Below, one piece after another: positions 17,517 to 32,640 of a DNA stretch of 64,000 nt. This stretch comes from Escherichia phage Mangalyan: sequence record OR449013. One strand, 5' to 3'. Each line of letters opens with the position of its first letter. Positions within the stretch are counted from its first letter, which is position 1. Made by a program: the position numbers and the translations under genes. The notes beneath the pieces were generated by a model. It saw only the letters and a program-made list of their open reading frames with translations. It was not told where the DNA came from and ran no database searches.

Positions 17517-18050
17517 ATGACTTGTGCTAGAAAACCTGATGAACAACGTAACGCCTACGATGAGTATGTGACACCGGAGTGGTGTGCAGAAGGGCTGTAT
17601 GACCTTATTCCGTTCCCAGAAGACTGGACCTACTTAGAGCCTTGCAGGAATAGTGCCTCAGGTGTGTTCTACTCCCGTATGCCGTTAGGATCTGCATGGG
17701 GAGAAATACAAGAAGGTGTTGACTATCTGAATACAGAATACAACCATGTTGACTGTATTATCACCAACCCACCATACAGCCTGGCTCGTGAGTTTGTAGA
17801 CAAGGCGTTGAAAGATGCTGACGTAGTTATTATGCTTTTGCGTCTTAATTTTCTGGAAAGCAAAGCCAGATTTGAATGGTGGCTTGATAATGCACCTACT
17901 ACTGTGATCACAATATCTAAGCGTCCATCATTTCAATCAAACGGCAGAACTGACGGGCAAGCATATGCATATTTTGTGTGGGATAAGAAAAACCGTTTAG
18001 ACTTGCCGCCGTTTATGTGGTTGGCACCCCCAGAGGTAGACCTGAAATGA
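17517..18050 (+). CDS. N6-adenine methyltransferase-like protein (paralog of 1084..1902)
   Basis: IITNPPYS (motif IV); N-terminal YVTPEW parallels YYTNPGY of the other copy. Confidence 0.45.
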   Translation: MTCARKPDEQRNAYDEYVTPEWCAEGLYDLIPFPEDWTYLEPCRNSASGVFYSRMPLGSAWGEIQEGVDYLNTEYNHVDCIITNPPYSLAREFVDKALKDADVVIMLLRLNFLESKARFEWWLDNAPTTVITISKRPSFQSNGRTDGQAYAYFVWDKKNRLDLPPFMWLAPPEVDLK

Positions 18051-18331
18051 AAATGAGTGCTAAGGACAAATTACACCAGCTAGCGCTAAAACGCCCTGTA
18101 ACGCTCCCTGACGAGCTTAACTCCATTTATGATGCGATTGTAGGGGAGATACAAAATAAAGCGTTAGCAGGCTTTCTGGGGTGCGGATTTTCGATAAATC
18201 TACCCTCGCATCTCTCAGATTACTTCCCGCACATTGTTGGAGATTTAAGGGCAGGAGGTCTGCAGGTAGATGTTGTTGGCATCTCCCCAGAGAAAAATAA
18301 TACGGTTGCCTACTTGACAGTAACCTGGTAG
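18047..18331 (+). CDS. hypothetical protein
   Basis: ATG overlapping upstream stop (ATGA); track ORF 18017..18331. Confidence 0.45.
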   Translation: MKMSAKDKLHQLALKRPVTLPDELNSIYDAIVGEIQNKALAGFLGCGFSINLPSHLSDYFPHIVGDLRAGGLQVDVVGISPEKNNTVAYLTVTW

Positions 18332-18367
18332 TTGTGTATTGTTGTTTTCAACAAGAGGGGGTCATTT

Positions 18368-18607
18368 ATGTACAAGTCATTTTCAATCTACTCAAGACAG
18401 GCGAAACACTACACAGAGATCCTGATCACTCAGAAAAAATCTGTGGAAGGTGAGTGGGAATATCACCATAAAATGTTGCGTCCAGACTGGGTTTTTGATA
18501 GACTTATTGCTATGATCCCTCTCGGAGAAGTATACCCTCTGACAGCCCATCGCGATGCTTGGGATTTAATTGATTACATAGATTCATTTAAGGAGCCTAG
18601 ATTATGA
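18368..18607 (+). CDS. hypothetical protein
   Basis: SD GAGGGGG before ATG 18368. Confidence 0.45.
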   Translation: MYKSFSIYSRQAKHYTEILITQKKSVEGEWEYHHKMLRPDWVFDRLIAMIPLGEVYPLTAHRDAWDLIDYIDSFKEPRL

Positions 18608-19002
18608 AGATTGAGATTACTAAAGAAGGTAAGAAAGTGTCCGGCAACTATGCAACAGTAATTCGGGATTTAATGTTTGAAGCCACCAAGATCGGTACAT
18701 CTAAAGTTGGTCAAACTGTTAGTGTGAAAAGTAATATCTCCACAGGAGAGAAGGTATTCATTGTGGTCAAAGGGCAGGATCCCGTGGAAGGAACAGTGGG
18801 CCGAGGTGGCTACCTGTGCATTTCTGAAGAGCCGCGTATGTTAGTGGCTGACGCTACTATGGGTGGGAAACGTGTGTGCGAGGCGGATGAGGTAATGATT
18901 ATCCAACCTGTTGATCCAGATGACCCAGCAACTTGGGTGGTAGGAAATGAAATCTTCTCTTTAGAAGAGTTATCCTTCCCAGCACCGCGCTCTGTTCAGT
19001 AA
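18604..19002 (+). CDS. small acidic protein, MKxK paralog family
   Basis: SD AAGGAG; starts MKIEITKEG. Confidence 0.5.
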   Translation: MKIEITKEGKKVSGNYATVIRDLMFEATKIGTSKVGQTVSVKSNISTGEKVFIVVKGQDPVEGTVGRGGYLCISEEPRMLVADATMGGKRVCEADEVMIIQPVDPDDPATWVVGNEIFSLEELSFPAPRSVQ

Positions 19003-19041
19003 TAATTTATCTTACCAGGGACGGTAGAAGCAGGAGGTAGC

Positions 19042-19275
19042 ATGAAAGTTAAATTTCTTACAGATTTAGGGTACCCTTCCTTGGTTGACTGCGTTGGTAA
19101 AATTGTGGAAGCAAAACGGCTATCTGCAAACGAGAATGTTGTCCTGGTTAAGGGAAAGGATTTACTAGCTGCAGGTGCAGAGTCTGGCAGGATCTCTCCT
19201 GACTATACATATTACCTATCTTTAAGTAATCTGCCAGAACGAGGCGGCAAAGGCCTTGAAGTTGTGGAGGAGTGA
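19042..19275 (+). CDS. small acidic protein, MKxK paralog family
   Basis: SD AGGAGG; MKVKFL...LVKGKDLLAAGA...LEVVEE. Confidence 0.5.
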   Translation: MKVKFLTDLGYPSLVDCVGKIVEAKRLSANENVVLVKGKDLLAAGAESGRISPDYTYYLSLSNLPERGGKGLEVVEE

Positions 19276-19280
19276 CAGGT

Positions 19281-19805
19281 ATGCTTCTTATTAACTGGGA
19301 AGACCTCTATGGGGACAAAGACCCTGTTGCGTTTGTTGATCGTAGATGGAGATATACTGAAGAACAACTGGCTGCAAAAAATTTAACTGCGAAACGCAGA
19401 AAGATTATCCAGTGCAAGTACAAATACGCACAGTTTGCTGCAAAAGTGTCTCCACAAATCGAGAGCTTTGTACTTAAATTGTATGACGAGTATCTCAAAT
19501 TCAAATTGGATTTTGTGCAGGTATACCGTGCACAGGTACGCCCAGATACCAGCATTTGCAGATGGAAGGTTGTTTGTGACGGTAAAGCTTTGCCGATCAG
19601 CTTGACAATTGAGCAGCGTTGGGGGTATCATGAGTGTGGTCTGTATGAGACTTGGGATGTCATTGTAGATCCTGCTAAGTACCTGAACACAGAGGAGCTG
19701 GAATATATCAATAAGGTTATTCTAGATATGTTTTTCAACTACACCCGTGAAAACTCTGAGAAAGAACGAGATAATTTTCTTGACACCATCAGCAACCATC
19801 TGTAG
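19281..19805 (+). CDS. hypothetical protein
   Basis: SD GGAGGAG 10 nt before ATG 19281. Confidence 0.5.
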   Translation: MLLINWEDLYGDKDPVAFVDRRWRYTEEQLAAKNLTAKRRKIIQCKYKYAQFAAKVSPQIESFVLKLYDEYLKFKLDFVQVYRAQVRPDTSICRWKVVCDGKALPISLTIEQRWGYHECGLYETWDVIVDPAKYLNTEELEYINKVILDMFFNYTRENSEKERDNFLDTISNHL

Positions 19806-19835
19806 TATATAATTTAACCTACAAAGAGAGGACTA

Positions 19836-20072
19836 ATGAGTATAGATGTTGCGCTAATAGGTTACCTGGTAATAGCCGTTATAACGGCAGTATTCTTGAC
19901 AGGTGTATGCATCGTGTCCACACGAAGGGTGAAGTTTGATGATTTTATCACTATCATCACTGCTGCACCTTTTTGGCCTGTTGTTATCTTCATCGTGATA
20001 ATGTGCCTGGTGGATTACTACAAGAATACCCGTAAGGAGAAAAAGGAGAGTAGGGATGGAGACTGCACCTAA
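19836..20072 (+). CDS. small membrane protein (two predicted TM helices)
   Basis: hydrophobic segments LIGYLVIAVITAVFLTGV and FWPVVIFIVIMCLV; SD AGAGAGG. Confidence 0.45.
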   Translation: MSIDVALIGYLVIAVITAVFLTGVCIVSTRRVKFDDFITIITAAPFWPVVIFIVIMCLVDYYKNTRKEKKESRDGDCT

Positions 20073-20291
20073 AACTGTTTATACTGTTCTTAAAGAGATT
20101 GCGTTCTACGCAGATCTTAGCCAGGCACCTTTATGGGAAAAGAGCATGTATTTAAAATGGTGCATTAATTTAGGGAGATCTTCCAGTGTTTCAAGCCATG
20201 TTTATTGAAATGCTATCTGGGGTATTGTTACTGGTAACCATCTTAGGTGGTGCAGTTCTGATGTATAACTATCTTGAAAAAGGAGACAGCA

Positions 20292-20477
20292 ATGGTAAAA
20301 AATAAATCTTTAGAGCAGGCTGAAAACCTTCTCCACGAGCTGGTAAAGGAGTGGAAAGTTGAATACTCAGATTTTAATGCAAGAGAGGGGGAAGATTATT
20401 GGCCTACGGAGCGCTCAGAGGGAGAGTGGTATCAAGATTTCATAGAATGGTTATATCAGACGTGTGATGAGGGGTGA
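20292..20477 (+). CDS. hypothetical acidic protein
   Basis: SD AGGAGA 5 nt before ATG. Confidence 0.4.
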   Translation: MVKNKSLEQAENLLHELVKEWKVEYSDFNAREGEDYWPTERSEGEWYQDFIEWLYQTCDEG

Positions 20478-20479
20478 CG

Positions 20480-20935
20480 ATGTTTGTTAAATATGTAAAA
20501 ACGTGCCTCAACAACCTTGGTAGAGAGCATTGGTACACCTTGCTTGAAAAAGGAGAAATTTTAACAAAATCTGGAAAGATAACTTTGATACCCTTGGATG
20601 ATAAAGACCCGTCACTACTTGTCATAGATGATTACGTTACAGGTGTGTCGTACGAGGTCTCTGTGGAGAGGTTAATACGCAGATCTGGAGGGCCTTATGA
20701 CCGAAGAGAGTATGTTTTCGATTCTGTTACAGAGAAGGAGGATCCGTCTCTAATGTTTAGGATGGTAATCAGGGATATGAAATCATCTATAAATAGGATC
20801 GTAAAGGACATTAAAGAGCCTTTTAGGGTAAAAGTTAAGAAGTTTTTTGATTCTAAGATTAACATACTCGCCGTTGTACTAGGCGTAATTCAACTTCTGT
20901 TAATTTTGCACTATCTTGAACTGTTGTTCAAGTAG
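20480..20935 (+). CDS. hypothetical protein with C-terminal membrane anchor
   Basis: C-terminal ILAVVLGVIQLLLIL. Confidence 0.45.
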   Translation: MFVKYVKTCLNNLGREHWYTLLEKGEILTKSGKITLIPLDDKDPSLLVIDDYVTGVSYEVSVERLIRRSGGPYDRREYVFDSVTEKEDPSLMFRMVIRDMKSSINRIVKDIKEPFRVKVKKFFDSKINILAVVLGVIQLLLILHYLELLFK

Positions 20936-20995
20936 TGTGCAACAAGGCACAAAGGAGGTGCCATGATTAAATAAACTAAGAAAGAGGTAGAGAGA

Positions 20996-21343
20996 ATGCC
21001 AAAGATTAAGTCGGTATTAATGTGGGCAGCTGTTGTAGCTTTTGTAGGATACTGGACTTGGGAAACTGAATTAAAAGATATCGGATATACCAGTCTTGAG
21101 AGCAAGGCATGCATTGGCATAACCGATGCATTCAGGCAAAATGCTATGGATCACGAATGTGTTGATGCAGATATAGATGAGAAACTGTCTAAGGACAAGG
21201 ATTTTTACCATGGTCATGCCTTGCTTGATAGTGGTGACACTGTGGAATTCTGGTCGTGGTTCCGTGAAGATGGAACAATAAAGACAGCAGTAAAGATTTC
21301 CAACAAAGAGTTAATGCTGTTGCAGCAGAAGGAGGTGCAATGA
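20996..21343 (+). CDS. hypothetical protein with N-terminal TM/signal anchor
   Basis: SD GAGGTAGAGAG; N-terminal SVLMWAAVVAFVGYW. Confidence 0.45.
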   Translation: MPKIKSVLMWAAVVAFVGYWTWETELKDIGYTSLESKACIGITDAFRQNAMDHECVDADIDEKLSKDKDFYHGHALLDSGDTVEFWSWFREDGTIKTAVKISNKELMLLQQKEVQ

Positions 21344-21627
21344 TTTGGATATCCTACACTGATGGCACCATGCTGTATACCGCAGGTACTAGGTATGAAG
21401 TTCAGGAGGACGATAAAAAATTTATCGTAAAAACATTTGACAAGGACGACAACCTTTTGCTAGAGTTAACTTACAAAGTTGGAGAGGTATCCAATATCCA
21501 GCTGGATTGCGGTCATAAAGATAATCCACTCAAAAAACCTGGGATAGGCAAGGCTTCAGAAGAACGTTTGTCTCGTGTTGCAGAAAGCGTTTCTCCCCAA
21601 AAATCTAAGAAGAGGATTAGAAAATGA
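21340..21627 (+). CDS. hypothetical protein
   Basis: SD GGAGGTG; overlaps upstream stop. Confidence 0.4.
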   Translation: MIWISYTDGTMLYTAGTRYEVQEDDKKFIVKTFDKDDNLLLELTYKVGEVSNIQLDCGHKDNPLKKPGIGKASEERLSRVAESVSPQKSKKRIRK

Positions 21628-21824
21628 GTGACAAAATTCTTAAATTTAATACCTACTATGAGAATGATTTGAACGATCTGTATTATATAGTGCGTAGCGA
21701 AAACCCAAATGTAGTACTGTTTTGTCGAGAACCTTTCAAAAAAGAGGAGATTGAATCTACCATGAATGTGGATCAGATTTCACACCTGCTGCTCCTTGGA
21801 TCATTAAAAGAGGCTGTATTCTAA
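21624..21824 (+). CDS. hypothetical protein
   Basis: 66-aa ORF, coupled start. Confidence 0.4.
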   Translation: MSDKILKFNTYYENDLNDLYYIVRSENPNVVLFCREPFKKEEIESTMNVDQISHLLLLGSLKEAVF

Positions 21825-21843
21825 ACCAGGGTGGAGGGTTTTT

Positions 21844-22029
21844 ATGAAGCACTACTGTCTGTCTGGTAGAATGGGTGCAGATTGTGATTGGGTTTTCTTG
21901 AAACTTGTCAGTATTCGAGAGTTCATTCCAGAGGAAGAGCAAGAAAGCGAGCTGATGTCATGGATCAACCATTACGGTAACACTTTTAGGCATGTTAAGG
22001 TGGAAGAGTTGCCAAGCGAGGCTGATTGA
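21844..22029 (+). CDS. hypothetical protein
   Basis: SD GGTGGAGGG. Confidence 0.4.
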   Translation: MKHYCLSGRMGADCDWVFLKLVSIREFIPEEEQESELMSWINHYGNTFRHVKVEELPSEAD

Positions 22030-22124
22030 CTATGATTGCATCAATATTAACGTTTATGGGTGGCGTGGCATTCGGATTCATTGTTTGCCTGTTTATAGTG
22101 ATTATGTCTATGCGAGGCTGAATT

Positions 22125-22418
22125 ATGAAACTTTTTGAGTGGTTTAAAAAGTTTAAATATAAAGCTGTAGCCATCGTGCCGTGGTCCATTCAGTGGGTGG
22201 ACGATGAGGGATTACCAATTCCAGGTGATAAAGACACGGGATACTGGATCATGCTTGAGAACGGGTTCGGTAAACGGAAATATTCCTGCACGGATACCTC
22301 AGGAGCATCTTTTAGGAGAATTCCTGGGTATAAATGTATGATTGTGTGGAAGATGTCTGGTGTACCTCCGGCTAATGCACAATATCTTACTACCAATCCA
22401 ACCACAGAAGAGGACTAG
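22125..22418 (+). CDS. hypothetical protein
   Basis: 97-aa ORF. Confidence 0.4.
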   Translation: MKLFEWFKKFKYKAVAIVPWSIQWVDDEGLPIPGDKDTGYWIMLENGFGKRKYSCTDTSGASFRRIPGYKCMIVWKMSGVPPANAQYLTTNPTTEED

Positions 22419-22420
22419 TA

Positions 22421-22702
22421 ATGAAAAAGATTTGCGATACAGATGTGGAGTTCAAGGTGTGTAGTAAGGAGACCTATTGGGAAGTGAGACAAAAGGTATA
22501 TTTGTTTGGACTTATCCCATATTGGTCTAAATTCTACTGGGGAGCAGATGAATTAGGGAGATATGCCACCAAAGCTATGGCGCTTATAGGTATAGCTGAA
22601 TATATTGCTGCTAGGGACAGGGCTGGAAAAACCTGCTACTACACTGCTGACGAGATTCGTAACAGTGTTTACGTCCCCCAACCACCTGAAGGAGACCGTT
22701 GA
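22421..22702 (+). CDS. hypothetical protein
   Basis: 93-aa ORF, SD GAGGA. Confidence 0.4.
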   Translation: MKKICDTDVEFKVCSKETYWEVRQKVYLFGLIPYWSKFYWGADELGRYATKAMALIGIAEYIAARDRAGKTCYYTADEIRNSVYVPQPPEGDR

Positions 22703-22926
22703 TGAAAGTTAAAGTTTTAGATTCAAGCTTCTATATTGGTCAGGAGCCTTTAGTGGGTAAAGTGTTTACCGCTGTCCCTAACGAAGATTACCCTGACCTT
22801 TTAAAAATAAAGGGTGCAGATCTTATTGCCGCTGGTGCATCTCAGGACTGCTTTGACAGCCAGTGGACCTACAACTTTGCCCTAGGTGAGGATGTGGAGA
22901 TAATGGAGGACGATCATGAAGGTTAA
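22702..22926 (+). CDS. small acidic protein, MKxK paralog family
   Basis: SD AAGGAGA; MKVKVLDSSFYIGQ...IKGADLIAAGA. Confidence 0.5.
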   Translation: MKVKVLDSSFYIGQEPLVGKVFTAVPNEDYPDLLKIKGADLIAAGASQDCFDSQWTYNFALGEDVEIMEDDHEG

Positions 22927-23170
22927 AATTCTTGATTCTAACGTCTACTTGGGGCAATCCTTTCTTAAAGGGAAGGTTGTACCTGCGGTATACTTCGAAG
23001 GGTTGCCGTGGGATGATCCTGTGCGGCAACATCACAGTTATGTAGGCCACAACGTGGTGTTTATCTTAGGATCAGACCTGATCACCGCTGGTGCACCTGA
23101 ATATTATTTCGGGGAAGAGTCCTATTATGCCTTTGGGGTAGGTTCAGATGCAGATATTGTAGAGCTGTGA
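22916..23170 (+). CDS. small acidic protein, MKxK paralog family
   Basis: SD GGAGGA; MKVKILDSNVYLGQ...LGSDLITAGA. Confidence 0.5.
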   Translation: MKVKILDSNVYLGQSFLKGKVVPAVYFEGLPWDDPVRQHHSYVGHNVVFILGSDLITAGAPEYYFGEESYYAFGVGSDADIVEL

Positions 23171-23182
23171 TGGGTAACCGTT

Positions 23183-23581
23183 GTGAAAAATAAACTGTTC
23201 AAAGTTACAATGAAAATTCGCGGAGCTTGGAGCGTAAAGCAAGGGCGTATTCCGGAATTTGAGAAAGACTTCTACGTAGTCTCCACCTCGGAGGAGGCTG
23301 CATGCTGGCAGGCTGGCTATGCCTATGCAAGAACCTGGTACGAAGGATACCAGACTGGGGGCTATGACGGAGAAATTGTCAGCAAGGGTGTAGAAGAAAT
23401 TAATGTGTTGACAAGTGAAAAAGTTTTTGTTATAGTGCATCCAGATTCCAGAGTGAAGCATTACTGGAATGCCAGAACAAAAACTTGGACACCGTTTGCA
23501 GACTCTGCTACACCACTTTTAAACCAAAAAGCTCTTGACTCTGCCCCGAGCTATGGGGTTGTTGAAGAAAAGCTAAACTGA
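23183..23581 (+). CDS. hypothetical protein (paralog of 25391..25786)
   Basis: shared C-terminal block HYWNARTKTWTPF vs YYWDVLNNEWTPD; start uncertain. Confidence 0.4.
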   Translation: MKNKLFKVTMKIRGAWSVKQGRIPEFEKDFYVVSTSEEAACWQAGYAYARTWYEGYQTGGYDGEIVSKGVEEINVLTSEKVFVIVHPDSRVKHYWNARTKTWTPFADSATPLLNQKALDSAPSYGVVEEKLN

Positions 23582-23598
23582 AACAGTGAGGTGTCACT

Positions 23599-23889
23599 AT
23601 GATGGATTTAATTCTAAATATTGATAACGCAGAAGAGGTTAAAGACGATGGTGTAACAAGCATGGACCAACCATGCCCTGCCAAGATTGACTCAAAATGG
23701 ACATATAAGTTTGACGGAGAGATCTCTGCAAATGATGAAAAGGTTGTAGATGCTGCAGCCATTTTGAACGCTCTAGGGTACGACCCTGTAAATTCTTTGA
23801 TCAAGGATCCTGTTGAGTTTGCAGAGTATGTTCGAAAAATGGCAGATCTTGCTGTAGATATTTTAAATACTATCGACAACAATCTGTAA
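23599..23889 (+). CDS. hypothetical acidic protein
   Basis: SD GTGAGGTG. Confidence 0.45.
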   Translation: MMDLILNIDNAEEVKDDGVTSMDQPCPAKIDSKWTYKFDGEISANDEKVVDAAAILNALGYDPVNSLIKDPVEFAEYVRKMADLAVDILNTIDNNL

Positions 23890-23895
23890 AAACTG

Positions 23896-23924
23896 TTGAC
23901 ACAACGCTTCAGCTATAGTATTAT
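23896..23924 (+). promoter_or_regulatory. sigma70-like promoter
   Basis: TTGACA, 17-nt spacer, TATTAT. Confidence 0.6.
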
Positions 23925-23971
23925 TGTTTTCAAAGAGAGAGTTATTCCCTCTTCTTTAAAAGGAACACGTT

Positions 23972-24289
23972 ATGCAAATTGAGATCACTGGCAACGTAGA
24001 AATCACCGAAGGTATGGTGTCTTTCATTTCCCACAAAATGTCAAAACTGGAGCGTCTACATCCTTCTGTAAATCATGCACGTGTAAGTGTAAAAGTTGAA
24101 AATGATCACCAGGAAGTTATGGCGTTCATTTTTGACACTTCTGGAAAAGAAGTTATTGCCAAAGCTAAAGGCAGTGATGCTTACGAGGCAACTGACCGTA
24201 TGGTAGATGTTGCAGCACGTCAGCTGGCTAAATGCGGTGGAAAGAAAGGTAAAGGGAAAGGAAAAGTAAAGATTGACTTTGGAGAATGA
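23972..24289 (+). CDS. small protein, MKxK-related, Gly/Lys-rich tail
   Basis: MQIEITGN...; C-terminal KKGKGKGKVK. Confidence 0.45.
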   Translation: MQIEITGNVEITEGMVSFISHKMSKLERLHPSVNHARVSVKVENDHQEVMAFIFDTSGKEVIAKAKGSDAYEATDRMVDVAARQLAKCGGKKGKGKGKVKIDFGE

Positions 24290-24426
24290 GGTGCTACAAT
24301 GGGCGTGATTAAGAAATTAGTCCCAAGTGTATAGATTGCATGCTTTGAAATTATGTTTGCAATCGCAGTTGTAGTTAATGTGTTAGGTTACGGCTATTAA
24401 TATCAAATAATTGAGGAGACCTCTAA

Positions 24427-24696
24427 ATGAAAATTAAATTATTCAAAACCGAGCTGGCAGACAAAAACTGTGGACTGGTTGAAGGCATGATCGTTGAAGC
24501 ACAACCAGTGGACTACATGAAGGTAGTTCGTGATGCCTTGGGTGAAGGTTTTGATCTGATGGAACCAGCTCTGCGAGAAGATGTTATTGAGATGGCTAAA
24601 AAGCACACACCTGAAGGTTTGGTGGTGTTTGTTGCACCTGGTAACGGAGAAGAGTTGATTGTAACCCCTGATGTGTATGAGATTGTAGAAGAGTAA
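24427..24696 (+). CDS. small acidic protein, MKxK paralog family
   Basis: SD GAGGAGA; MKIKLFKTE...VYEIVEE. Confidence 0.5.
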   Translation: MKIKLFKTELADKNCGLVEGMIVEAQPVDYMKVVRDALGEGFDLMEPALREDVIEMAKKHTPEGLVVFVAPGNGEELIVTPDVYEIVEE

Positions 24697-24790
24697 TCCT
24701 GCTCGGATCAGCATACTCCTTCAATAAAAAGAAAAGTTTGTAATTATTTGTGGGAAAGGAGTCCCCATCTCTTGCCAGAGGTGATACTAT

Positions 24791-25054
24791 ATGATTATTT
24801 ATTTTAAAACTTCAGGTGGATACCCTGATTCTCAAAGCTTGATCGGAAAAACGTGCACAGCATACTCACCTCTTGATGAGGAGGTAAGCGATATCATACG
24901 AGATATGTATCGGATTGACCCCCAAGAAGCTTTTGATCAAAACCTTGTATTTGTCAAGGGCTCAGACATGAAGTCTTTGGGAGCATTTCCTGAAGCAGAT
25001 GATGATGCCGTTTATTCGTTTATGGCCCCTTTTGAAGCTATGGTTGTTGGGTGA
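24791..25054 (+). CDS. small acidic protein, MKxK-related
   Basis: VFVKGSDMKSLGA block shared with family. Confidence 0.45.
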   Translation: MIIYFKTSGGYPDSQSLIGKTCTAYSPLDEEVSDIIRDMYRIDPQEAFDQNLVFVKGSDMKSLGAFPEADDDAVYSFMAPFEAMVVG

Positions 25055-25058
25055 GAAT

Positions 25059-25391
25059 ATGAAAGTACGATTTATTGGTGAAACAATTCCTGTGCATCTC
25101 CGGTCGCCTGAAGATTCTGCAGATCTTGCATCTCAGAAGGCGAGAGGTTATGATAAGAAAGTAATCTCAACCGATGTAGAACTTGAGGCTACTAGTTTAC
25201 CTGACCCTGCTGCATTCTTTAATCATTATGGATACTATTTCAGCAATCTGATGAATATCGGTGAGCTTGTGTTTATTAGTGGTGGAGAAATTGTCAGCAA
25301 GCTTGGCGGCGATCCGGATGTCTTTCATGAAACCTGTCCTTTTGCATTTGTGGTGGGTTCAGATGTGGAAGTTATTGAGGAGGTGCGGTAA
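25059..25391 (+). CDS. small acidic protein, MKxK paralog family
   Basis: ATG 25059 (MKVRFIG) preferred over track start 24999; ends VEVIEEVR. Confidence 0.45.
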   Translation: MKVRFIGETIPVHLRSPEDSADLASQKARGYDKKVISTDVELEATSLPDPAAFFNHYGYYFSNLMNIGELVFISGGEIVSKLGGDPDVFHETCPFAFVVGSDVEVIEEVR

Positions 25392-25786
25392 TGGTAAGCC
25401 TATACCGTGTTGAGTATAGCTCAGATACTGTGTACAACGTAAGAAGCAAAGATCGCAGCGACAGAGTGCAAGAAATGTATGTTCTTGCCGACAGTCAGTT
25501 ATCTGCAGCGTTCAAGGCAGGGGCTCTTGCATCTCGTTGGAAATTTGAAGGCGGATCTTTCTATGAAGAAACCCTTGAAGATTCTGTTGTTATTTCTTCT
25601 GTAGAGGTTTCAGATGACTACGAAGGGAAAAAGTTCGTAATGCGGCACCCACACAGCAACATTGCGTACTACTGGGATGTTCTGAACAACGAGTGGACCC
25701 CAGATCTTCAGAAGGCTACTGTGCTAACACCGTTTTTGGCAGATAAGTTCCCACCAGAAGGTAATTTATCCGCACTGTTTCAGTAA
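25391..25786 (+). CDS. hypothetical protein (paralog of 23183..23581)
   Basis: shared C-terminal YYW...WTPD block. Confidence 0.45.
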   Translation: MVSLYRVEYSSDTVYNVRSKDRSDRVQEMYVLADSQLSAAFKAGALASRWKFEGGSFYEETLEDSVVISSVEVSDDYEGKKFVMRHPHSNIAYYWDVLNNEWTPDLQKATVLTPFLADKFPPEGNLSALFQ

Positions 25787-25804
25787 TTTTCTTGCACACA
25801 GGTG

Positions 25805-25833
25805 TTGACAACACCAACCCTGTGTGAAATAAT
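25805..25833 (+). promoter_or_regulatory. sigma70-like promoter with -35 inside a palindrome
   Basis: TTGACA, 17-nt spacer, AATAAT; -35 embedded in GGTGTTGACAACACC, itself inside CACACAGG...CCTGTGTG. Confidence 0.5.
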
Positions 25834-25865
25834 ACCTTCATCTTAACAAGACAGGAGACTGATTG

Positions 25866-26123
25866 ATGAAGATTAAACTGAAAAACCTTGAAATGGCAGA
25901 GATTCAGGATGGTGTTGATTTCCGCTCTAAAGATGGTGACATCTTAGAGGTAAATCTTCCAACCTACAAGCTGATTAAAGGTTTTGGCAACGTTCCGGAA
26001 GAGGATATTCCAGAAATTCTTATGATGTTGATTCTTGACGGAACTGTGTTTGTAGGTGAAGGTGAGAACGCTATTGCAATCCCAAGCCATTTTTATGAAG
26101 TAGTTGACGAAGAGGTGCTGTAA
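25866..26123 (+). CDS. small acidic protein, MKxK paralog family
   Basis: SD AGGAGA; MKIKLKNLE...YEVVDEEVL. Confidence 0.5.
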   Translation: MKIKLKNLEMAEIQDGVDFRSKDGDILEVNLPTYKLIKGFGNVPEEDIPEILMMLILDGTVFVGEGENAIAIPSHFYEVVDEEVL

Positions 26124-26474
26124 ATGAAAGTAGAAATTACCGGTTTTGATGTGAATGCGGTTCCGGAAGATATTTTATCTAAATTGCCGGAAGGTTTTGG
26201 TAACGGTGTTGTGGTGGACGCTGTTCCTCCTACCAAAGACATTCTGCTGCAGTATGGTGTAGCAGAGGAAGATGTTGATAAAGTTCTTACAATGATGGCA
26301 ATCGATCGTGTTGTCGTTGTTAAAGGTCTCGATAATTTTGAGAGTGATCCTCTGATTATTCGTGGAGATGACTACAAAATCATCGATAATGAAGGCCAAG
26401 AGTTCTATGAGCCTTGTGCAGAAGATATTCTTAACTTATTACTGGAAGCAGGCACCGAAGAGGAGGACGAATAA
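26124..26474 (+). CDS. small acidic protein, MKxK paralog family
   Basis: SD GAGGTG; MKVEITGFD. Confidence 0.5.
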   Translation: MKVEITGFDVNAVPEDILSKLPEGFGNGVVVDAVPPTKDILLQYGVAEEDVDKVLTMMAIDRVVVVKGLDNFESDPLIIRGDDYKIIDNEGQEFYEPCAEDILNLLLEAGTEEEDE

Positions 26475-26803
26475 TGAAGATTGACCCGTTACTGAAGGCT
26501 CGTGCAGAAAAAGCGTACACCATTAAGCTGACCAACCTAGTTCCTACTTGTCATCCAGATGTAGGTTGGCCCGAAGGTTTGGTGGAAGGAACTGTAACAG
26601 CTGCATACCTTCCTAACATCAAATACCTCATGGAGATCTTAGAGATGGATGAGGAAACTGCAGAACAGTTCCAGTTGGATATGAAACAGAGTGGGACTCT
26701 GGTTATTCACGGGTGGTATAATACTAAAGATGCAGAAGACCCTCTGGTAACTTCTAATCTGGCATATGAAATCTTAGGGCCTTTGAACCTGGAGGAAGAC
26801 TAA
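26474..26803 (+). CDS. small acidic protein
   Basis: SD GAGGAGG; MKIDPLLK. Confidence 0.45.
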   Translation: MKIDPLLKARAEKAYTIKLTNLVPTCHPDVGWPEGLVEGTVTAAYLPNIKYLMEILEMDEETAEQFQLDMKQSGTLVIHGWYNTKDAEDPLVTSNLAYEILGPLNLEED

Positions 26804-27090
26804 TGAAAGATCTGGTTAAGATTAAGATTAAAGATACCAATGGGGAGCTCAGCCATTTTGGAATTAATGATGGTGACGAGCTGATCGCACACCTGCCTAC
26901 CAAGGAGGTTGTAAGCAAAGCAGTTGCCGGAGAAGAAGCTGCAATGCAGGCTGCAGGTGTGGATGAAAACTATGTAGCTATGTGCATGTGCCGAGATCAG
27001 GTTGTTCTGTATAAAGCGTATAGACCAAACGGAGCCACGGAGTGGCTTGTATTCCGACCCGAAGGATATGAAATCTTAGAGGCACTATGA
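26803..27090 (+). CDS. small acidic protein, MKxK-related
   Basis: SD GGAGGAAG; MKDLVKIKIKD...GYEILEAL. Confidence 0.45.
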   Translation: MKDLVKIKIKDTNGELSHFGINDGDELIAHLPTKEVVSKAVAGEEAAMQAAGVDENYVAMCMCRDQVVLYKAYRPNGATEWLVFRPEGYEILEAL

Positions 27091-27179
27091 TAAATCTTGC
27101 CAAGGTTGCAACGGCACTGTTAATTATTTGCTGGTCAGTAACCTTAACACTGTGTCTTGTATTTCAGTGAGGTGCTTGT

Positions 27180-27443
27180 ATGAACATCCTGATGTGGGTT
27201 GTAGCAGTGGCGTTTGTTGCATGTTTTTGCTGCTGGGTTGCGGTGAGGATTTCTGTAGCTACCCTTCGGAAGTTGGGGTTCTCAGAGTGGGATATTAATA
27301 TCCTTTCTTTTCGCAATGAAACAATCTCAGCCGCCCTGCTCTGTAAGAAATTCAAGTGGGAACCTTGCGAGGTCATGAACTATCTAAGAACGGGAGATAT
27401 CCCTGAAAGATTTAAAAAAGTTCTTGACGACAAGGATAAATGA
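27180..27443 (+). CDS. small membrane protein
   Basis: N-terminal ILMWVVAVAFVACFCCWVAV; SD GTGAGGTG. Confidence 0.45.
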   Translation: MNILMWVVAVAFVACFCCWVAVRISVATLRKLGFSEWDINILSFRNETISAALLCKKFKWEPCEVMNYLRTGDIPERFKKVLDDKDK

Positions 27444-27471
27444 TAGTATAGTGACTAACAAGAGGTGAGGA

Positions 27472-27612
27472 ATGACTGATTTTACTGAAGCTTTAATGAT
27501 GGCCTTGTCTGTTTTAGCGCTATCGGTGTGTTTTGGGGCGTTATTCACATCTCTGGTTAAAGTTTTACATACAGTATTATTACCCAAGGAGCGCAGTAAT
27601 GACGAAGATTGA
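27472..27612 (+). CDS. small membrane peptide, 46 aa
   Basis: SD AGAGGTGAGGA before ATG; hydrophobic ALMMALSVLALSVCFGALF; below track cutoff. Confidence 0.35.
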   Translation: MTDFTEALMMALSVLALSVCFGALFTSLVKVLHTVLLPKERSNDED

Positions 27613-27850
27613 CTTAAATGCTGGAGACCATGTTGTTGTCAAATGCATCGGAGATTATCTTGGATTCACAATCGGCAATACTTACGAGGCGGTAGTGGCG
27701 AAGGTTTACCATGATAAAGTCCTCAGTCTTGTATTTGACTGCGATGATGATGGGGATGACCGATACGTCTGTGAGGTGCTGGCACGAGACGATAGTGAAG
27801 ACCAGAAATTCCTGGTTATTGAACTGAACGGTATTTTTGTAGAACGTTAA
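27599..27850 (+). CDS. hypothetical acidic protein
   Basis: ATG 27599 with SD AAGGAG; track ORF 27533..27850 trimmed. Confidence 0.45.
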   Translation: MTKIDLNAGDHVVVKCIGDYLGFTIGNTYEAVVAKVYHDKVLSLVFDCDDDGDDRYVCEVLARDDSEDQKFLVIELNGIFVER

Positions 27851-27878
27851 TTTAAAACAACATAAGGAGACTCTTACT

Positions 27879-28184
27879 ATGGCTAAATCTAAAGTTGAAC
27901 TGTTCACCTCTCTTCCTTCTGACACTGCAGAGCGTGATCGCCTTCGCAAAACAATCGAAGAACTGGTAGAACTCCAACTTCAGATTAAAGATCTGAAAGA
28001 TGCCATTAAGGATATCATTCTCGTTGAGAAGCAGGATCACCTGTATTCTCCTAAATTCATCAAATCTCTGGTGGCTACCGAGTTCGATATTCGCTATGAG
28101 GCTGAAAAACGTCGAGCTAAAATCGAAGAAGAGGTTGAGCACATGTCCGAGGCAGACATTCTGTTCAAACGCTCTGTAGAATAA
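27879..28184 (+). CDS. hypothetical coiled-coil-like protein
   Basis: SD AAGGAGA; charged heptad-like sequence. Confidence 0.5.
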   Translation: MAKSKVELFTSLPSDTAERDRLRKTIEELVELQLQIKDLKDAIKDIILVEKQDHLYSPKFIKSLVATEFDIRYEAEKRRAKIEEEVEHMSEADILFKRSVE

Positions 28185-28192
28185 TGACAAAA

Positions 28193-28216
28193 AGAGGGGC
28201 TTGGGCCCCTCTTTTT
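28193..28216 (+). terminator. rho-independent terminator
   Basis: AGAGGGGC-ttgg-GCCCCTCT followed by TTTTACT. Confidence 0.65.
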
Positions 28217-28239
28217 ACTATCTATGAAGGAGATTTGAG

Positions 28240-28572
28240 ATGGGTATACCGATCACTGTAAAAGAATTGAATGAACGTGATGCAGGTGGTCTATGGCCTG
28301 CACGAAAAATACGCTGCATCCGTATGAAAGAGAACCTTGAGCATCTTGAGCAACAGAAACGGATTGAGGTTGGTGATATTTTCGAAGTATTTTATTCTGA
28401 TCGCCGTAACTGGGAAACCATTCAACCTTCCGGTTTTGTTCTTGCTAAGCTTGACACTGGAGAAGTGATTGTTCCTGGGTTGGATATTGTCTTCGAAATT
28501 ATCCAGGAGTGGGATCCGGACAAGATTAGATACGAAGAGCTATTCGGTGAAGGTATTATCAAACCTGTGTGA
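28240..28572 (+). CDS. hypothetical protein
   Basis: 110-aa ORF, SD GAAGGAGA. Confidence 0.5.
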   Translation: MGIPITVKELNERDAGGLWPARKIRCIRMKENLEHLEQQKRIEVGDIFEVFYSDRRNWETIQPSGFVLAKLDTGEVIVPGLDIVFEIIQEWDPDKIRYEELFGEGIIKPV

Positions 28573-28580
28573 GGTGGATT

Positions 28581-28880
28581 ATGTCTACAAAGGCGGCTAA
28601 ATACTCCTACATGCCATCAACCTCTGCAGAGGTAGACTTTAGTTTCGATGTGTTTCCACTGTTTGAGGTGGTTCTGGCATACCCAACAATACTATCTACT
28701 CCTGAATCACTTGTGCCTGTTAAGTTGCAGAACGCTATGCATTCCATGCACTACAACAACAAATGTAGGCACAGATGGTGTCAGGACGAGGAAAAAGATT
28801 TGGATAGTTTGAGAGATTTTGACAGTCACCTTTTGACACCTTTCAGCTACTCCAACCTTGATAAGCCTTCGTGGGTATAG
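28581..28880 (+). CDS. hypothetical protein
   Basis: ATG 28581 with SD GAGGTGGA; track 28569..28880. Confidence 0.45.
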   Translation: MSTKAAKYSYMPSTSAEVDFSFDVFPLFEVVLAYPTILSTPESLVPVKLQNAMHSMHYNNKCRHRWCQDEEKDLDSLRDFDSHLLTPFSYSNLDKPSWV

Positions 28881-28904
28881 CAAAATATCAAATTTAAGAC
28901 ACCT

Positions 28905-28930
28905 AGGACGCTCTGTGGCGTCCTTTTCTT
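28905..28930 (+). terminator. rho-independent terminator
   Basis: AGGACGC-tctgtg-GCGTCCT followed by TTTCTTTATC. Confidence 0.6.
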
Positions 28931-29093
28931 TATCTGGTGCACGATTGCATACCTTGGGCAGTTAATCTCATTACAGAGCGTTTAAGAGCTCCCTACAAAC
29001 AACTCCATATTTCGAGCGTAGCGAGAACGCACGTCCGTTTTGACCCAAATCACCATACGCTCGGATTTTAACCAAACCCTCGCGGCGTTTCTG

Positions 29094-29122
29094 TTGACAC
29101 ATTACCGATCCAGTGATAGTAT
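29094..29122 (+). promoter_or_regulatory. sigma70-like promoter
   Basis: TTGACA, 17-nt spacer, TAGTAT. Confidence 0.5.
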
Positions 29123-29154
29123 CCACACATAGTTTGTAGAATATGGAGTACACA

Positions 29155-29244
29155 ATGAGAACATTGTCCGAAGTTTTAGTGGTGATCCTGATGATCATTA
29201 CGTCCATAGCGGCTGTTGCCGGAATACTCACGGGTGGAACATGA
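29155..29244 (+). CDS. small hydrophobic peptide, 29 aa
   Basis: SD GGAG before ATG; MRTLSEVLVVILMIITSIAAVAGILTGGT; stop overlaps next ATG (ATGA). Confidence 0.35.
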   Translation: MRTLSEVLVVILMIITSIAAVAGILTGGT

Positions 29245-29453
29245 TAAACACACATGCATCTGAAGAGACATCCAAAGGAGTGACTATATGTCCCTTGGCT
29301 GAGCCAGTGAAAGAGGAAAACTTAGATTCTGAAGATTCTCCATCTTCGCTCCAGGTAGATCCTGAGGCTGATGACCTAACGTGGGAAGACATCGTAGACA
29401 TCTGGTTCTCCATTATGCCTGAGCACGAAGAGTTCAGAGGTGGTAGACTATGA
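29241..29453 (+). CDS. hypothetical acidic protein
   Basis: 70-aa ORF coupled to upstream peptide. Confidence 0.4.
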   Translation: MINTHASEETSKGVTICPLAEPVKEENLDSEDSPSSLQVDPEADDLTWEDIVDIWFSIMPEHEEFRGGRL

Positions 29454-29574
29454 AGCACCGAGCCCACACAGGTTCCTCATGCTAAAGCATGGCCTGAAGA
29501 GGCAAACGTGTATAATTCCTGTGCATTAGAACGTATAAAACCCTGTTCACACTTTCATTCCCAGAGGAGATTTT

Positions 29575-29790
29575 ATGAAGATAGAGATATTTGGTGGAGC
29601 TGACAACACTCGTGGCCTGATTTACCTTGAATTCGATGAATCATACCTGCCAGAGGTGTTAAATATGGACTCTGTTGCTGAGGCTTTGGGAGTAAGTCCT
29701 AAAGATCTCCACTCTGGTGCTGAGATTGATGGTTGGGAGGAGACCATGAACATCGATTTCAGTGAAGTAGGGGATGAACCACTGGACTGA
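29575..29790 (+). CDS. small acidic protein, MKxK paralog family
   Basis: SD GAGGAGA; MKIEIFGG. Confidence 0.5.
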   Translation: MKIEIFGGADNTRGLIYLEFDESYLPEVLNMDSVAEALGVSPKDLHSGAEIDGWEETMNIDFSEVGDEPLD

Positions 29791-31319
29791 CACACAATTA
29801 GTTGCCCGGCTAAAGTGCTGGGAGCACCCATAACACATCTTTCAACTAAATTTTCTACCACCACAATCACTTACCTCCCACACATGACTGTTTGCTTGTT
29901 TAGTGAGCAGTCATGCCTTGACATTCTTGCCTATCCTGATAAAATTAAGTTCTTCTCTTTTCTTTTACCGAGTAATTCGGGTTTTCTGTTCTCTTCGGTT
30001 TGAAGGGGTATGGAGATACACCTGAGTGAACAGGGTGAACAACCGAACCATTGGCTATGGCATTAGCATGGCGAAGCGGACGGGTGACGAAAGAGGGGCC
30101 GGAGGACACCAGTCACTGCCATATGATATATGGGTGATAACCTGAAGAGTCTGAATAAGTGTTTAAGTACCAGTCAGAGGAAAAGGTGAATGGTAGCCGA
30201 AGGGGGAGGGGGGTTACCTGCTTCTGTAAACATGCATCTGAAATACTACTTTAGATAACCTGAACCTGCCTTTCTGACAAATATTCCCTATTAAACTTGA
30301 ATTATTTATAGAAAATACCACAACACCACTTAAGTCTTTGATTTTACACACAAATCTTACAGATATTAAACCTCTCTATTTAACATACCTGTAACATATA
30401 CTATACTCCACCTGTCTGATCAATTTCCCCAACTACATCCCCATATTTTCCCTGTCTGTACTACCCCTGCCCCGCCGGGAGTCCCGTCATATCTGGCTTT
30501 CCAGCAAATATCACACCCACAAATATCATCACCTGAAGAGGGTTTCATCCCATAATACATGCCTTACCTGAAGAGCGCTTCATACACCACATAAATTTTT
30601 TAATTGACCCCCTCCCCGCCGCCGGAGAGGTTGGCTTTTCCCACACAGACCTGGAGAGTCAGCCAGAAATATCTGAAGAGGGTCTAGTTCTGCCCTGTCA
30701 TAAGCGGTAGCGACTGGAGTGCTGCTAGGCGGACGAAATGGGAATACTTCTCATTCTTATAACAATTCTCAAATATCGAGGCAGTGAGGCAAATTAATAG
30801 GTGAGGCCGTTCACACAGTGGCACAACATTTGCAACCTATCTTGTGGGATTGAATGAGAATACCTATCATTGTGAGAACTGTTATCATTACGGGCAATTT
30901 AACATAATACCCATTATGCGCACCACTGGCGATACATACAGGGATTGATAACATGGGTTACTGTTTACGCACATAACAATTATATTTCTTACTATTTGTG
31001 TGGGATATAGTTAGCAGCCGATAGATTAGATATTAACCTGCAGACTTCTGACCGTCCAGACGTCTAAACGCCCACACACCAAGGATTATACATACACTCC
31101 TGAATGTAAACAGGGCCGCAAAAATGCTACCATACAAGCTTGTAAATTTTTCATGCAGCACTTGACAAAGAGGAGAAAAACTTGTCTGACATAATGTGAC
31201 CTAACTGACACAACATGACACTTTTACACACCTATTAGTTTACACACTGGATTGTTTACATTCCTGATTGTTCACATGCTAACCATTTACATGATTGACT
31301 GTTTACACACCGATAATCA

Positions 31320-31339
31320 GCCATGCCATTCGTTTGCAT
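31320..31339 (+). repeat. 20-nt direct repeat GCCATGCCATTCGTTTGCAT (copy 1)
   Basis: identical 20-mer recurs at 31551..31570. Confidence 0.7.
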
Positions 31340-31397
31340 GACAATAATTATACATGACAATAATCGCACTGATCATAATTAGCATGACATAATATAA

Positions 31398-31437
31398 AAG
31401 CAGGGCAACTATTAGCAGATCTATAGTTGCCTTGCTT
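31398..31437. repeat. inverted repeat, 15-nt arms around a 10-nt spacer containing AGATCT
   Basis: AAGCAGGGCAACTAT ... ATAGTTGCCTTGCTT (1 mismatch); GGCAACTAT/ATAGTTGCC recurs at ~31464 and ~31563. Confidence 0.65.
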
Positions 31438-31550
31438 GTTATGTCATGATTAACTAAATACAAGGCAACTATGATCTGATTAATAGTTTGCAGACAAACT
31501 ATCACGGGGGTGATGGTTACTGCTTTTATATTATGTCGCGACTCCGTCGC

Positions 31551-31570
31551 GCCATGCCATTCGTTTGCAT
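31551..31570 (+). repeat. 20-nt direct repeat GCCATGCCATTCGTTTGCAT (copy 2)
   Basis: identical to 31320..31339. Confidence 0.7.
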
Positions 31571-32176
31571 AGTTGCCTTATTGTTACAGATAAAATAATT
31601 GTATTGTTAATTATTTCTTATCTTTCTATTAGTCATCTAATGATTTCAGTTAATATAGTAACGTACAGTAAACATTAGACGACTAAAGATTTCTATGCTT
31701 ATGGTAACCTAACGTGACAATTCCAGACTGTTTACGAAAAATGTTGACACCTGGGCCGATTTATGTTATGCAGTTTACACGAATAATTATTTTATGCAGG
31801 TATTGACTATTCCGTTATTCTATGGTTGGAATAAATGCTTAGCAGGCTATAGAATGGCGAGCGTACGTAAATTCTGAGATCTGGCGGCTATAGTTATACT
31901 CGATTTTTCACGTAGAAAACGCTTTTGTAGTTATGTAAGTGTATGACTTATAAAGTTGACAAGCTATTGAATATATGCATCAGGTTAAATTTTGTGCAAA
32001 TGCTGCATTACGTGCAATTTTGGAAGGAAAAACGTGTAAAAATGGCCCTGCTACCACACAATGAAAAATTATGCAATAGTTATTTTATATGTATGTTTGT
32101 ACAGTGTGTGGGATTGATGGCTCGTCAATTATTCCACTTGCCAGGTAGGGCCGTTTATGGTAGGGGGAAGAGCAGA

Positions 32177-32202
32177 CAAAAAGAAAGGGGCCTAAGCCCC
32201 TT
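32177..32202 (-). terminator. rho-independent terminator closing the - strand gene block
   Basis: on - strand AAGGGGC-ttag-GCCCCTT followed by TCTTTTTGTCT. Confidence 0.55.
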
Positions 32203-32220
32203 GATAATTCAGTTAAAAAA

Positions 32221-32640
32221 TTATAATGATTCGTATATTTCAAAAATCCGATTTGCCAGGTCGTTACGGTAGCGGAATTTTTCCTCGCGTTTGATCATAA
32301 GATCTTTATAGCCGTACTCTTTAAGCACTTCATTAACTTTATGGCGGCATACTTTCATATTATCCTGCGCGTCACCAATAAATCTGTTGCTATGGTGCAT
32401 GGCTTTAATTTCTTCTTCCAGGACCAGGGCAACTATGCGGACCGGATCAAGCTGATAGGCGGTAACATCCATGCGGCATTGTAGACGGCTTTTAACGTCT
32501 GCCACCGGATATACTGCAACCTCTTCCCCGTCAACATTGACAATAATTAGTTTACCATCGATTTCGAATCCTTTCGCCGCCGGACCGTGACAAAAAGCGT
32601 TATCAAAGCTATATGCCGGATTATTAGATTTAATGTTCAT
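32221..32640 (-). CDS. hypothetical protein
   Basis: 139-aa ORF; SD AAGAGGT before ATG. Confidence 0.5.
   Translation of the reverse strand: MNIKSNNPAYSFDNAFCHGPAAKGFEIDGKLIIVNVDGEEVAVYPVADVKSRLQCRMDVTAYQLDPVRIVALVLEEEIKAMHHSNRFIGDAQDNMKVCRHKVNEVLKEYGYKDLMIKREEKFRYRNDLANRIFEIYESL

Follow-up and report, generated by a model that had tools for sequence, protein, structure and literature searches.

A family of ten small predicted beta-barrel proteins in Escherichia phage Mangalyan, candidate host-range or anti-immunity factors

Escherichia phage Mangalyan (sequence record OR449013) encodes, in the 64,000-nucleotide stretch of DNA analyzed here (the window), ten small genes that form one paralogous family with two subgroups and a common predicted fold. 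Genes are referred to by the position at which they start. Group A comprises 19042, 22702, 22916, 24791 and 25059, and group B comprises 24427, 25866, 26124, 26474 and 26803. Their products are 74-116 amino acids (aa) long and mostly acidic, with net charges between -1 and -21. The homology of the ten genes and the statements about their fold are, in our assessment, very likely to be correct. Transposon data from a close relative indicate that two or three family genes may be needed for growth on one clinical strain. The ten barrels are candidate host-range or anti-immunity factors, and an anti-defense or host-range role is plausible but unproven. Judged by sequence, the window is that of a Vequintavirus (rV5-like E. 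coli myovirus); positions 18000-30000 share 95-96% identity with over 100 rV5-like E. coli myoviruses, including JLBYU08, FFH2, rV5 and BASEL phages.

Ten paralogs in two subgroups and their predicted fold

The initial annotation of this region had proposed a tandem expansion of at least 12 paralogs of a small acidic protein. All 12 starts listed in it are real starts of open reading frames (ORFs) and match coding sequences (CDSs) annotated in FFH2, rV5, JLBYU08 and Bas54. Nine of the listed genes are homologous, three (18604, 23972 and 29575) found no support, and one member, 26474, had been overlooked, which brings the family to ten. For these ten genes, all-vs-all alignment and profile hidden Markov models (HMMs) indicate a statistically real family. 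Group A is linked by all-vs-all phmmer and hhalign at E-values of 1e-20 to 1e-5, and group B (24427, 25866, 26124 and 26803) more weakly, at phmmer and hhalign E-values of 3e-4 to 1e-3. Individual phmmer pairs include 22702 with 22916 (2e-12), 22702 with 19042 (5e-7), 25059 with 22916 (5e-5) and 25866 with 26124 (6.6e-5); hhalign aligns 19042 with 22702 at E = 1.5e-19, and 24791 was recruited by iterated HMMs. When one profile was built per paralog from its orthologs, hhalign split two clusters from all other pairs.

The strongest evidence comes from leave-one-out searches of the 454 ORFs of the window, in which the tested gene and its orthologs were excluded from the profile. Each of the ten members ranked first of 454, at E-values of 8.5e-19 to 1.6e-3 (8.5e-19 to 6.9e-5 for group A and 2.1e-8 to 1.6e-3 for group B), and the top non-member had E >= 0.26. 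Shuffled sequences reached at most 7.8 bits, compared with 80-130 bits for group-A members. A further profile, A5, which consists largely of distant relatives in other phages, recovered 24791 and 25059, both absent from the set it was built from.

The three unsupported genes were absent from every family HMM result list and have no similarity to the family past the first five residues. No profile connects genes 18604 (phrog_5748) and 29575 (phrog_12108) to the barrel family (best relevant hhalign E 0.056-0.25), with which they have only an MKIEI start in common. Gene 23972 was ruled out as a member; it encodes an HPF/RaiA ribosome hibernation factor whose start, MQIEITG, resembles the family N-terminus, and it has no hhalign link to the family. 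Genes 23183 and 25391 had been set apart as a second pair, and they do constitute a separate family, here called family C (phmmer 1.3e-11; both match phrog_7379).

Searches of Pfam, NCBIfam and PDB sequences with single members and with a 27-sequence profile returned nothing meaningful, in agreement with the earlier impression of a small acidic family without a curated name. In PHROGs the ten genes are spread over nine families of unknown function, including phrog_5009, 13920, 13661, 11868, 12359, 12155, 12457 and 12794. Three group-A genes (19042, 22702 and 22916) match phrog_5009 at E-values of 1e-32 to 1e-38, and 24791 matches it weakly (2.9e-4). No description of the family was found in the literature on phrog_5009, rV5 locus tags and Vequintavirus paralogs or early genes.

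AlphaFold2 (AF2) was run on family alignments for one representative of each subgroup, 22702 (mean predicted confidence, pLDDT, 90.3) and 24427 (pLDDT 91.8). Both are predicted to be SH3-like five-strand beta-barrels with identical strand order. In the models, strand 1 corresponds to the MK(V/I)K start of the proteins and strand 5 to their (Y/V)E(I/V)(V/L)E end. A skeleton of N-terminal, central and C-terminal motifs had been described as common to all members; the two ends hold up as barrel strands, and the central GxDL(I/L)AAGA block is limited to group A, where a conserved GxDLxxAGA helix is predicted after strand 3. More generally, group A carries G-x-(D/E)-L-x-x-x-G-A following strand 3 and Y-x-F within strand 4, both of which are absent from group B. 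Near-invariant columns are G38, D40, G45 and Y57 in alignment A3 and Y11, G38, L41 and G45 in A5. The MK(V/I)(K/E)x start occurs in 8 of 126 greedy ORFs compared with 0.48 expected, and all eight lie inside 18.6-26.8 kb.

The main difference among the paralogs is an insert of 0 to about 50 residues between strands 2 and 3 (alignments A3 and A4). Within group A the insert measures 0, ~13, ~16 or ~49 residues, always at this position, and group B is predicted to carry a three-helix insert at the same place. Full-length profiles of groups A and B align at E = 0.0039, spanning strands 1-2. Core-only profiles align at E = 2e-5 with a score of 29.8, and the scores of 100 column-permuted controls lay at 9.2 +/- 1.9 and peaked at 16.5, so that none equalled the observed one. 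Since the core profile alignment exceeds this null and the predicted fold is the same, we treat A and B as one superfamily.

Evolution of the array and relatives elsewhere

All ten genes were recovered in five of five Vequintavirus genomes. Across these genomes, the ratio of nonsynonymous to synonymous substitution rates (dN/dS) per ortholog set was 0.03-0.25, compared with 0.00-0.29 for neighboring genes. The array had been called diversifying. The dN/dS values point instead to purifying selection on each ortholog, and positive or diversifying selection between strains is rejected. Each paralog is individually maintained. The paralogs are old, with identities of 20-47%.

The gene order A, A-with-insert, C occurs twice, as 22702-22916-23183 (cassette 1) and as 24791-25059-25391 (cassette 2). 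The start of 22916 overlaps the end of 22702, and base 25391 is both the first base of gene 25391 and the last stop-codon base of 25059. The best cross-cassette hhalign matches pair 22916 with 25059 (6.6e-6) and 22702 with 24791 (1.1e-5). Origin of the A-A-C cassettes by an ancient block duplication is a suggestion only. The gene order and the cross-matches would fit it, but 22702 and 22916 are 47% identical and far closer to each other than to their cassette 2 counterparts.

Three observations indicate that the array is not static. In a 133 kb metagenomic Vequintavirus genome (L020:3001-3213), 22702 and 22916 are fused to a 70-aa hybrid with the family-C gene directly next to it, so that one copy is lost. 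Another contig (L021:210-428) carries a 22702 ortholog with a prophage-type N-terminal half. In rV5 (NC_011041.1, 13099-13369), a 2-nucleotide (nt) gap against the window sequence splits the 26803 ortholog into the overlapping ORFs gp148 and gp149, which reflects either a frameshifted pseudogene or an error in sequencing.

An exhaustive scan of 1.84 billion representative proteins by the group-A profile HMM gave 45 matches at E <= 1e-3, one of them spurious. The spurious one, P0090 (5191 aa), was the top long match and was discarded as a sum of 24 weak repeats. True group-A matches are 63-86 aa long with the consensus MKVKLLNDGGY..G....GKVV.A....I.G.ELI.AGA...F....Y.F..G.E.EVIEE. In addition there are multi-domain relatives of 136-264 aa, with three family-A domains in P0098 and two each in P0101 and P0126, so tandem repetition occurs inside genes as well as between genes.

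In P22/lambda-like prophages of Morganella and other enterobacteria, the group-A gene is part of the early-left accessory stretch, with recT/erf-ssb on one side and ninX, an MT-A70 methylase gene and int on the other. Family C was considered as a relative of P22 NinX, which follows the family-A gene in prophages, and was found unrelated (hhalign E = 0.46). Phage MagusPhagus has its group-A gene between Q and the holin gene. Two other phages of ~143 kb have one within long arrays of small genes, in one case with Lar and Gad2 ~5 kb away. A single family copy was detected in each of the relatives' loci examined. The few homologs that tblastn detected outside the genus are scattered over Proteus, Cronobacter, Vibrio, Iodobacter and T4-like phages and carry hypothetical labels throughout. 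Of 5426 complete E. coli genomes, 32 contain the prophage-type homolog. Group B was seen only in Vequintavirus. In Seunavirus 4MG and Mydovirus VLCpiM5b, neither group was detected within +/-20 kb of the ClpP-like gene or by tblastn against the whole phage genomes. Since the syntenic blocks of these two phages lack both groups, the ten-copy state is specific to Vequintavirus.

Host-dependent requirement and proposed role

Transposon sequencing (Tn-seq) of phage Bas54 (MaxBurger, MZ501093) has been reported in a preprint (10.1101/2025.11.20.689424). By tblastn, Bas54 genes map one-to-one to the window, and its family genes are 92-100% identical to those described here. We took the classes on K-12 from Extended Data Table 8 and the log2 fold changes (log2FC) from the resampling table comparing K-12 BW25113 with the uropathogenic isolate CFE311. 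All 12 orthologs of groups A and B and family C tolerate insertions on K-12, and insertions in cassette 2 vanish on CFE311 (Table 1). Such a loss specific to CFE311 is what would be expected of a host-specific counter-defense or host-range factor. The Bas54 ortholog of the hibernation factor gene tolerates insertions on K-12 and is unchanged on CFE311.

The main text of the preprint does not mention the family genes (10.1101/2025.11.20.689424). The follow-up on CFE311 by its authors was limited to bas54_0063 and bas54_0140, against DS-28, and the only systems cloned from CFE311, DS-28 and Gao_Tmn, were paired with genes outside the family. A knockout led the authors to report that bas54_0140 is needed to overcome the predicted defense system DS-28 of CFE311. 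The ortholog of bas54_0140 in the window, 28581-28880, lies on the same strand ~1.5 kb downstream of the array, and the block therefore contains a reported counter-defense gene. Some GenBank records call orthologs of this gene a portal vertex protein, which looks wrong. In Extended Data Table 8, the sheet named resampling_K-12_vs_CFE303 carries a BW vs 311 command line and 27 significant genes, both as in the CFE311 sheet; the file may lack the comparison with CFE303.

Table 1. Features of the array region and insertion phenotypes of their Bas54 orthologs (left-out, E-value in the leave-one-out search; A5, E-value with the A5 profile; adj. p, adjusted p-value; n.s., not significant; reads given as K-12 to CFE311)
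Positions	Strand	Feature	Support	Bas54 ortholog	K-12 class	CFE311 log2FC
19042..19275	+	Group A, 77 aa; rV5 gp122; short, without insert	phrog_5009 8.5e-36; left-out 1.8e-7	bas54_0166	Non-essential	+0.72
22702..22926	+	Group A, 74 aa; rV5 gp135; modelled representative		bas54_0159	Non-essential	+0.98
22916..23170	+	Group A, 84 aa; rV5 gp136; ~13-aa insert between strands 2 and 3	left-out 1e-16	bas54_0158	Non-essential	-0.30
23183..23581	+	Family C, 132 aa; last gene of first A-A-C cassette	phrog_7379	bas54_0157	Non-essential	-2.14 (adj. p = 0)
23896..23924	+	Sigma70-type promoter-like site in gap 23890-23971; rV5 P144	11/12 consensus			
23972..24289	+	HPF/RaiA hibernation factor	PF02482 E = 4.4e-13			
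24427..24696	+	Group B, 89 aa; rV5 gp141; modelled representative; predicted helical insert, residues 30-60		bas54_0153	Intermediate	-2.78 (n.s.)
24791..25054	+	Group A, 87 aa; rV5 gp142; ~16-aa insert between strands 2 and 3	left-out 6.9e-5; A5 5.5e-9	bas54_0152	Intermediate	-7.16 (142 to 0 reads, adj. p = 0)
25059..25391	+	Group A, 110 aa; rV5 gp143; ~49-aa insert	left-out 2.4e-6; A5 2.7e-6	bas54_0151	Intermediate	-6.17 (71 to 0 reads, adj. p = 0)
25391..25786	+	Family C, 131 aa; last gene of second A-A-C cassette	phrog_7379 E = 4.5e-66	bas54_0150	Non-essential	-6.77 (108 to 0 reads, adj. p = 0)
25805..25833	+	Sigma70-type promoter-like site in gap 25787-25865, before the four-gene group-B run; rV5 P150	11/12 consensus, extended -10 TG			
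25866..26123	+	Group B, 85 aa; rV5 gp145	left-out 8.3e-5	bas54_0149	Non-essential	+0.40
26124..26474	+	Group B, 116 aa; rV5 gp146; extra acidic C-terminal tail, net charge -21	left-out 2.1e-8	bas54_0148	Non-essential	+0.06
26474..26803	+	Group B, 109 aa; rV5 gp147; weakest member	left-out 1.6e-3; next non-member 2.6	bas54_0147	Non-essential	-0.04
26803..27090	+	Group B, 95 aa; rV5 gp148/gp149	left-out 8.5e-6	bas54_0146	Non-essential	+0.32
28581..28880	+	99 aa	99% identical to bas54_0140	bas54_0140		-5.48

The reading we favor, with a probability of about one half, is that the barrels are scaffolds expressed early, with variable loops that each attach to a different host protein, probably an immunity component that varies among strains. 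The genes would probably be transcribed early by host RNA polymerase from sigma70-type promoters. The common barrel would serve as the scaffold, and the loop or insert surface of each paralog would bind and neutralize a different host protein, the likeliest targets being strain-variable components of immunity or other barriers to host range. The array would then amount to a fixed repertoire of specificities, and with such a repertoire individual copies would matter only in particular hosts. The acidity makes direct binding of nucleic acids seem unlikely, and the two- and three-domain relatives P0098, P0101 and P0126 fit a modular binder. A more specific version, in which the repertoire is hard-wired with each variant directed against a different host protein and the A-A-C genes 24791-25059-25391 act as a multi-component counter-defense module against a system of CFE311, is tentative, and we consider it rather improbable.

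Several points weigh against this proposal. Early transcription by host polymerase is deduced from promoter consensus alone. No binding partner or defense system was matched to any barrel member, and a host-specific requirement need not mean immunity. Vequintavirinae were found to be exceptionally sensitive to restriction-modification in the BASEL study (PMC8594841), so the barrels are not effective anti-restriction proteins. Many neighboring genes are acidic as well. The core-only comparison of groups A and B relied on trimming of insert columns guided by the predicted structures. In the transposon data, seven of the ten barrel genes (19042, 22702, 22916 and the four of 25866-27090) are unchanged on CFE311. 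The loss of 24791 and 25059 insertions in cassette 2 is possibly a polar effect on the overlapping downstream gene 25391, and the depletion of both family-C paralogs indicates family C as the key player.

One alternative is that the barrels are general host-takeover modulators, i.e. adaptors or inhibitors which redirect proteolysis, translation or transcription together with the ClpP-like protease, the PhoH-like ATPase and the hibernation factor, and that the need for cassette 2 on CFE311 reflects the physiology of this strain. SH3-like and Sm-like barrels act as adaptor domains in other systems, and the family shares its strand and block with the ClpP-like protease (16416), the PhoH-like gene, a methyltransferase gene and the hibernation factor. 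The Intermediate class of 24427, 24791 and 25059, with lower insertion counts on K-12, also hints at a mild general role in fitness. However, related genera usually have their core takeover functions in common, and the syntenic block of Seunavirus and Mydovirus lacks the family; elsewhere its distribution is sporadic and confined to accessory regions, and searches linked the barrels to no adaptor family by sequence or profile. We regard general takeover as an unlikely explanation.

Family C alone could also be the host-specific factor, with the depletion of 24791 and 25059 caused by polarity or translational coupling, and the barrels could have another function, such as competition between phages or activity in other hosts, or be largely redundant. 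On CFE311, depletion is significant for both family-C paralogs (-6.77 and -2.14), and seven barrel genes have no phenotype. Coupling is likely given the one-base overlap of 25059 and 25391 and the 4 nt between 24791 and 25059, and the upstream gene 24427 drops partially and without significance (-2.78), the pattern expected of graded polarity. In cassette 1, however, insertions in 22702 and 22916 retain fitness and do not phenocopy those in 23183, although this downstream gene matters; this weighs against general polarity, though polarity may still act in cassette 2. The authors of the preprint state that polarity was not widespread (10.1101/2025.11.20.689424). Purifying selection also implies that each barrel paralog has some selected function. 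An exclusive role of family C appears to be a minor possibility.

Finally, the resemblance might be due to composition and a favored translation-initiation context (MK followed by hydrophobic/charged alternation) with no real family behind it, which describes 23972 (the hibernation factor) as well as 18604 and 29575 (N-terminal resemblance alone) and would suit the weak pairwise scores of group B (E about 3e-4 to 1e-3), but is highly improbable overall and, for the ten core members, already disproved by their first ranks in leave-one-out searches, the low scores of shuffled sequences, the two unused members recovered by A5 and two independent AF2 models with the same fold and strand order.

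Genome setting and comparison with known systems

The array belongs to a succession of ~37 small plus-strand genes, with the PhoH-like gene, the ClpP-like protease gene and the methyltransferase gene upstream; nearly all CDSs of the block are labelled hypothetical protein in relatives. The two promoter-like sites in the gaps at 23896 and 25805 were annotated as P144 and P150 by the rV5 depositors. The region-wide count of promoter-like sites is 56 compared with 42.6 +/- 6.3 in shuffles, ~2 standard deviations above, and terminator-like hairpins follow 17465 and 28184. The hibernation factor gene is embedded in the array and apparently has its own sigma70-type promoter (23896-23924). No tRNAs and no Rfam families were found in or near the array region.

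Within the block, genes 20474, 20996, 21340, 21624, 21844 and 22125 have no counterpart (E <= 1e-10) in the Bas54 region examined, and some of the six are also partial or absent in other relatives. By these comparisons, 20474-22418 is a variable accessory segment inside an otherwise conserved block. Eighteen GenBank records titled Campylobacter phage (MG0656xx, host C. jejuni) match positions 18000-30000, at 95-96% identity among the matches listed, and their assignment to C. jejuni looks doubtful.

The small-gene block terminates near 30-32 kb at a non-coding strand-switch region. The latter (~29800-32300) includes ~2 kb of non-coding sequence and a sign change of the GC skew, and its repeats are densest at 31320-31590. 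Four copies of a unit containing GGCAACTAT lie at 31395-31586 in both orientations. Two further repeats, both perfect, are a direct one of 20 nt (31320 and 31551) and an inverted one of 18 nt (31386 and 31520). The Bas54 counterpart tolerates no transposon insertions (10.1101/2025.11.20.689424). We consider the region a candidate replication origin or control region.

Phages of the rV5 type are common candidates for therapy and biocontrol, yet the function of most of their small genes is unassigned. Here, ten hypothetical proteins over nine PHROGs are brought together in one family whose fold is predicted with confidence and which has a signature and rare relatives, and this family is tied to existing transposon data through a strong strain-specific requirement for one cassette. 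It may represent a route by which intracellular host range is encoded in Vequintavirus. If the tentative hard-wired repertoire were real, the array would contribute to the intracellular host range of Vequintavirus, and its single-copy relatives, in other phages as well as in prophages, would form a new, widespread family of anti-defense folds.

PHROGs contains the same proteins, without a superfamily link, a common fold, the A/B split or a function. The fold nearest to the A and B models is the SH3-like small beta-barrel, known from SH3 domains, the KOW domains of Spt5/NusG, PsaE and the C-terminal domain of retroviral integrase; the Pfam SH3 and KOW models do not match the barrel family. A recurring mis-annotation can also be corrected. 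GenBank records (OK272482.1, PQ505080.1 and others) label 24427 orthologs as sigma 54 modulation factor. Gene 24427 was examined as a possible HPF/RaiA protein and rejected, with no PF02482 match at E <= 0.1 and, among the pairs listed by hhalign, none that links it to 23972. The HPF/RaiA fold of PF02482 is beta-alpha-beta-beta-beta-alpha, whereas the AF2 model of 24427 is a beta-barrel with a helical insert. Given the missing PF02482 match and this model, the label was apparently mis-transferred from the neighboring hibernation factor gene.

The closest functional parallels to cassette 2 are the HIDEN-SEQ anti-defense genes bas54_0140 (anti-DS-28) and bas37_0260 (anti-McrBC), which are likewise small, without assigned function, dispensable on K-12 and strongly depleted on a clinical isolate. 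They differ in the kind of evidence: for bas54_0140 a knockout and a cloned defense system have been reported, whereas bas54_0150-0152 are represented only by pooled Tn-seq in a supplementary table, with possible polarity.

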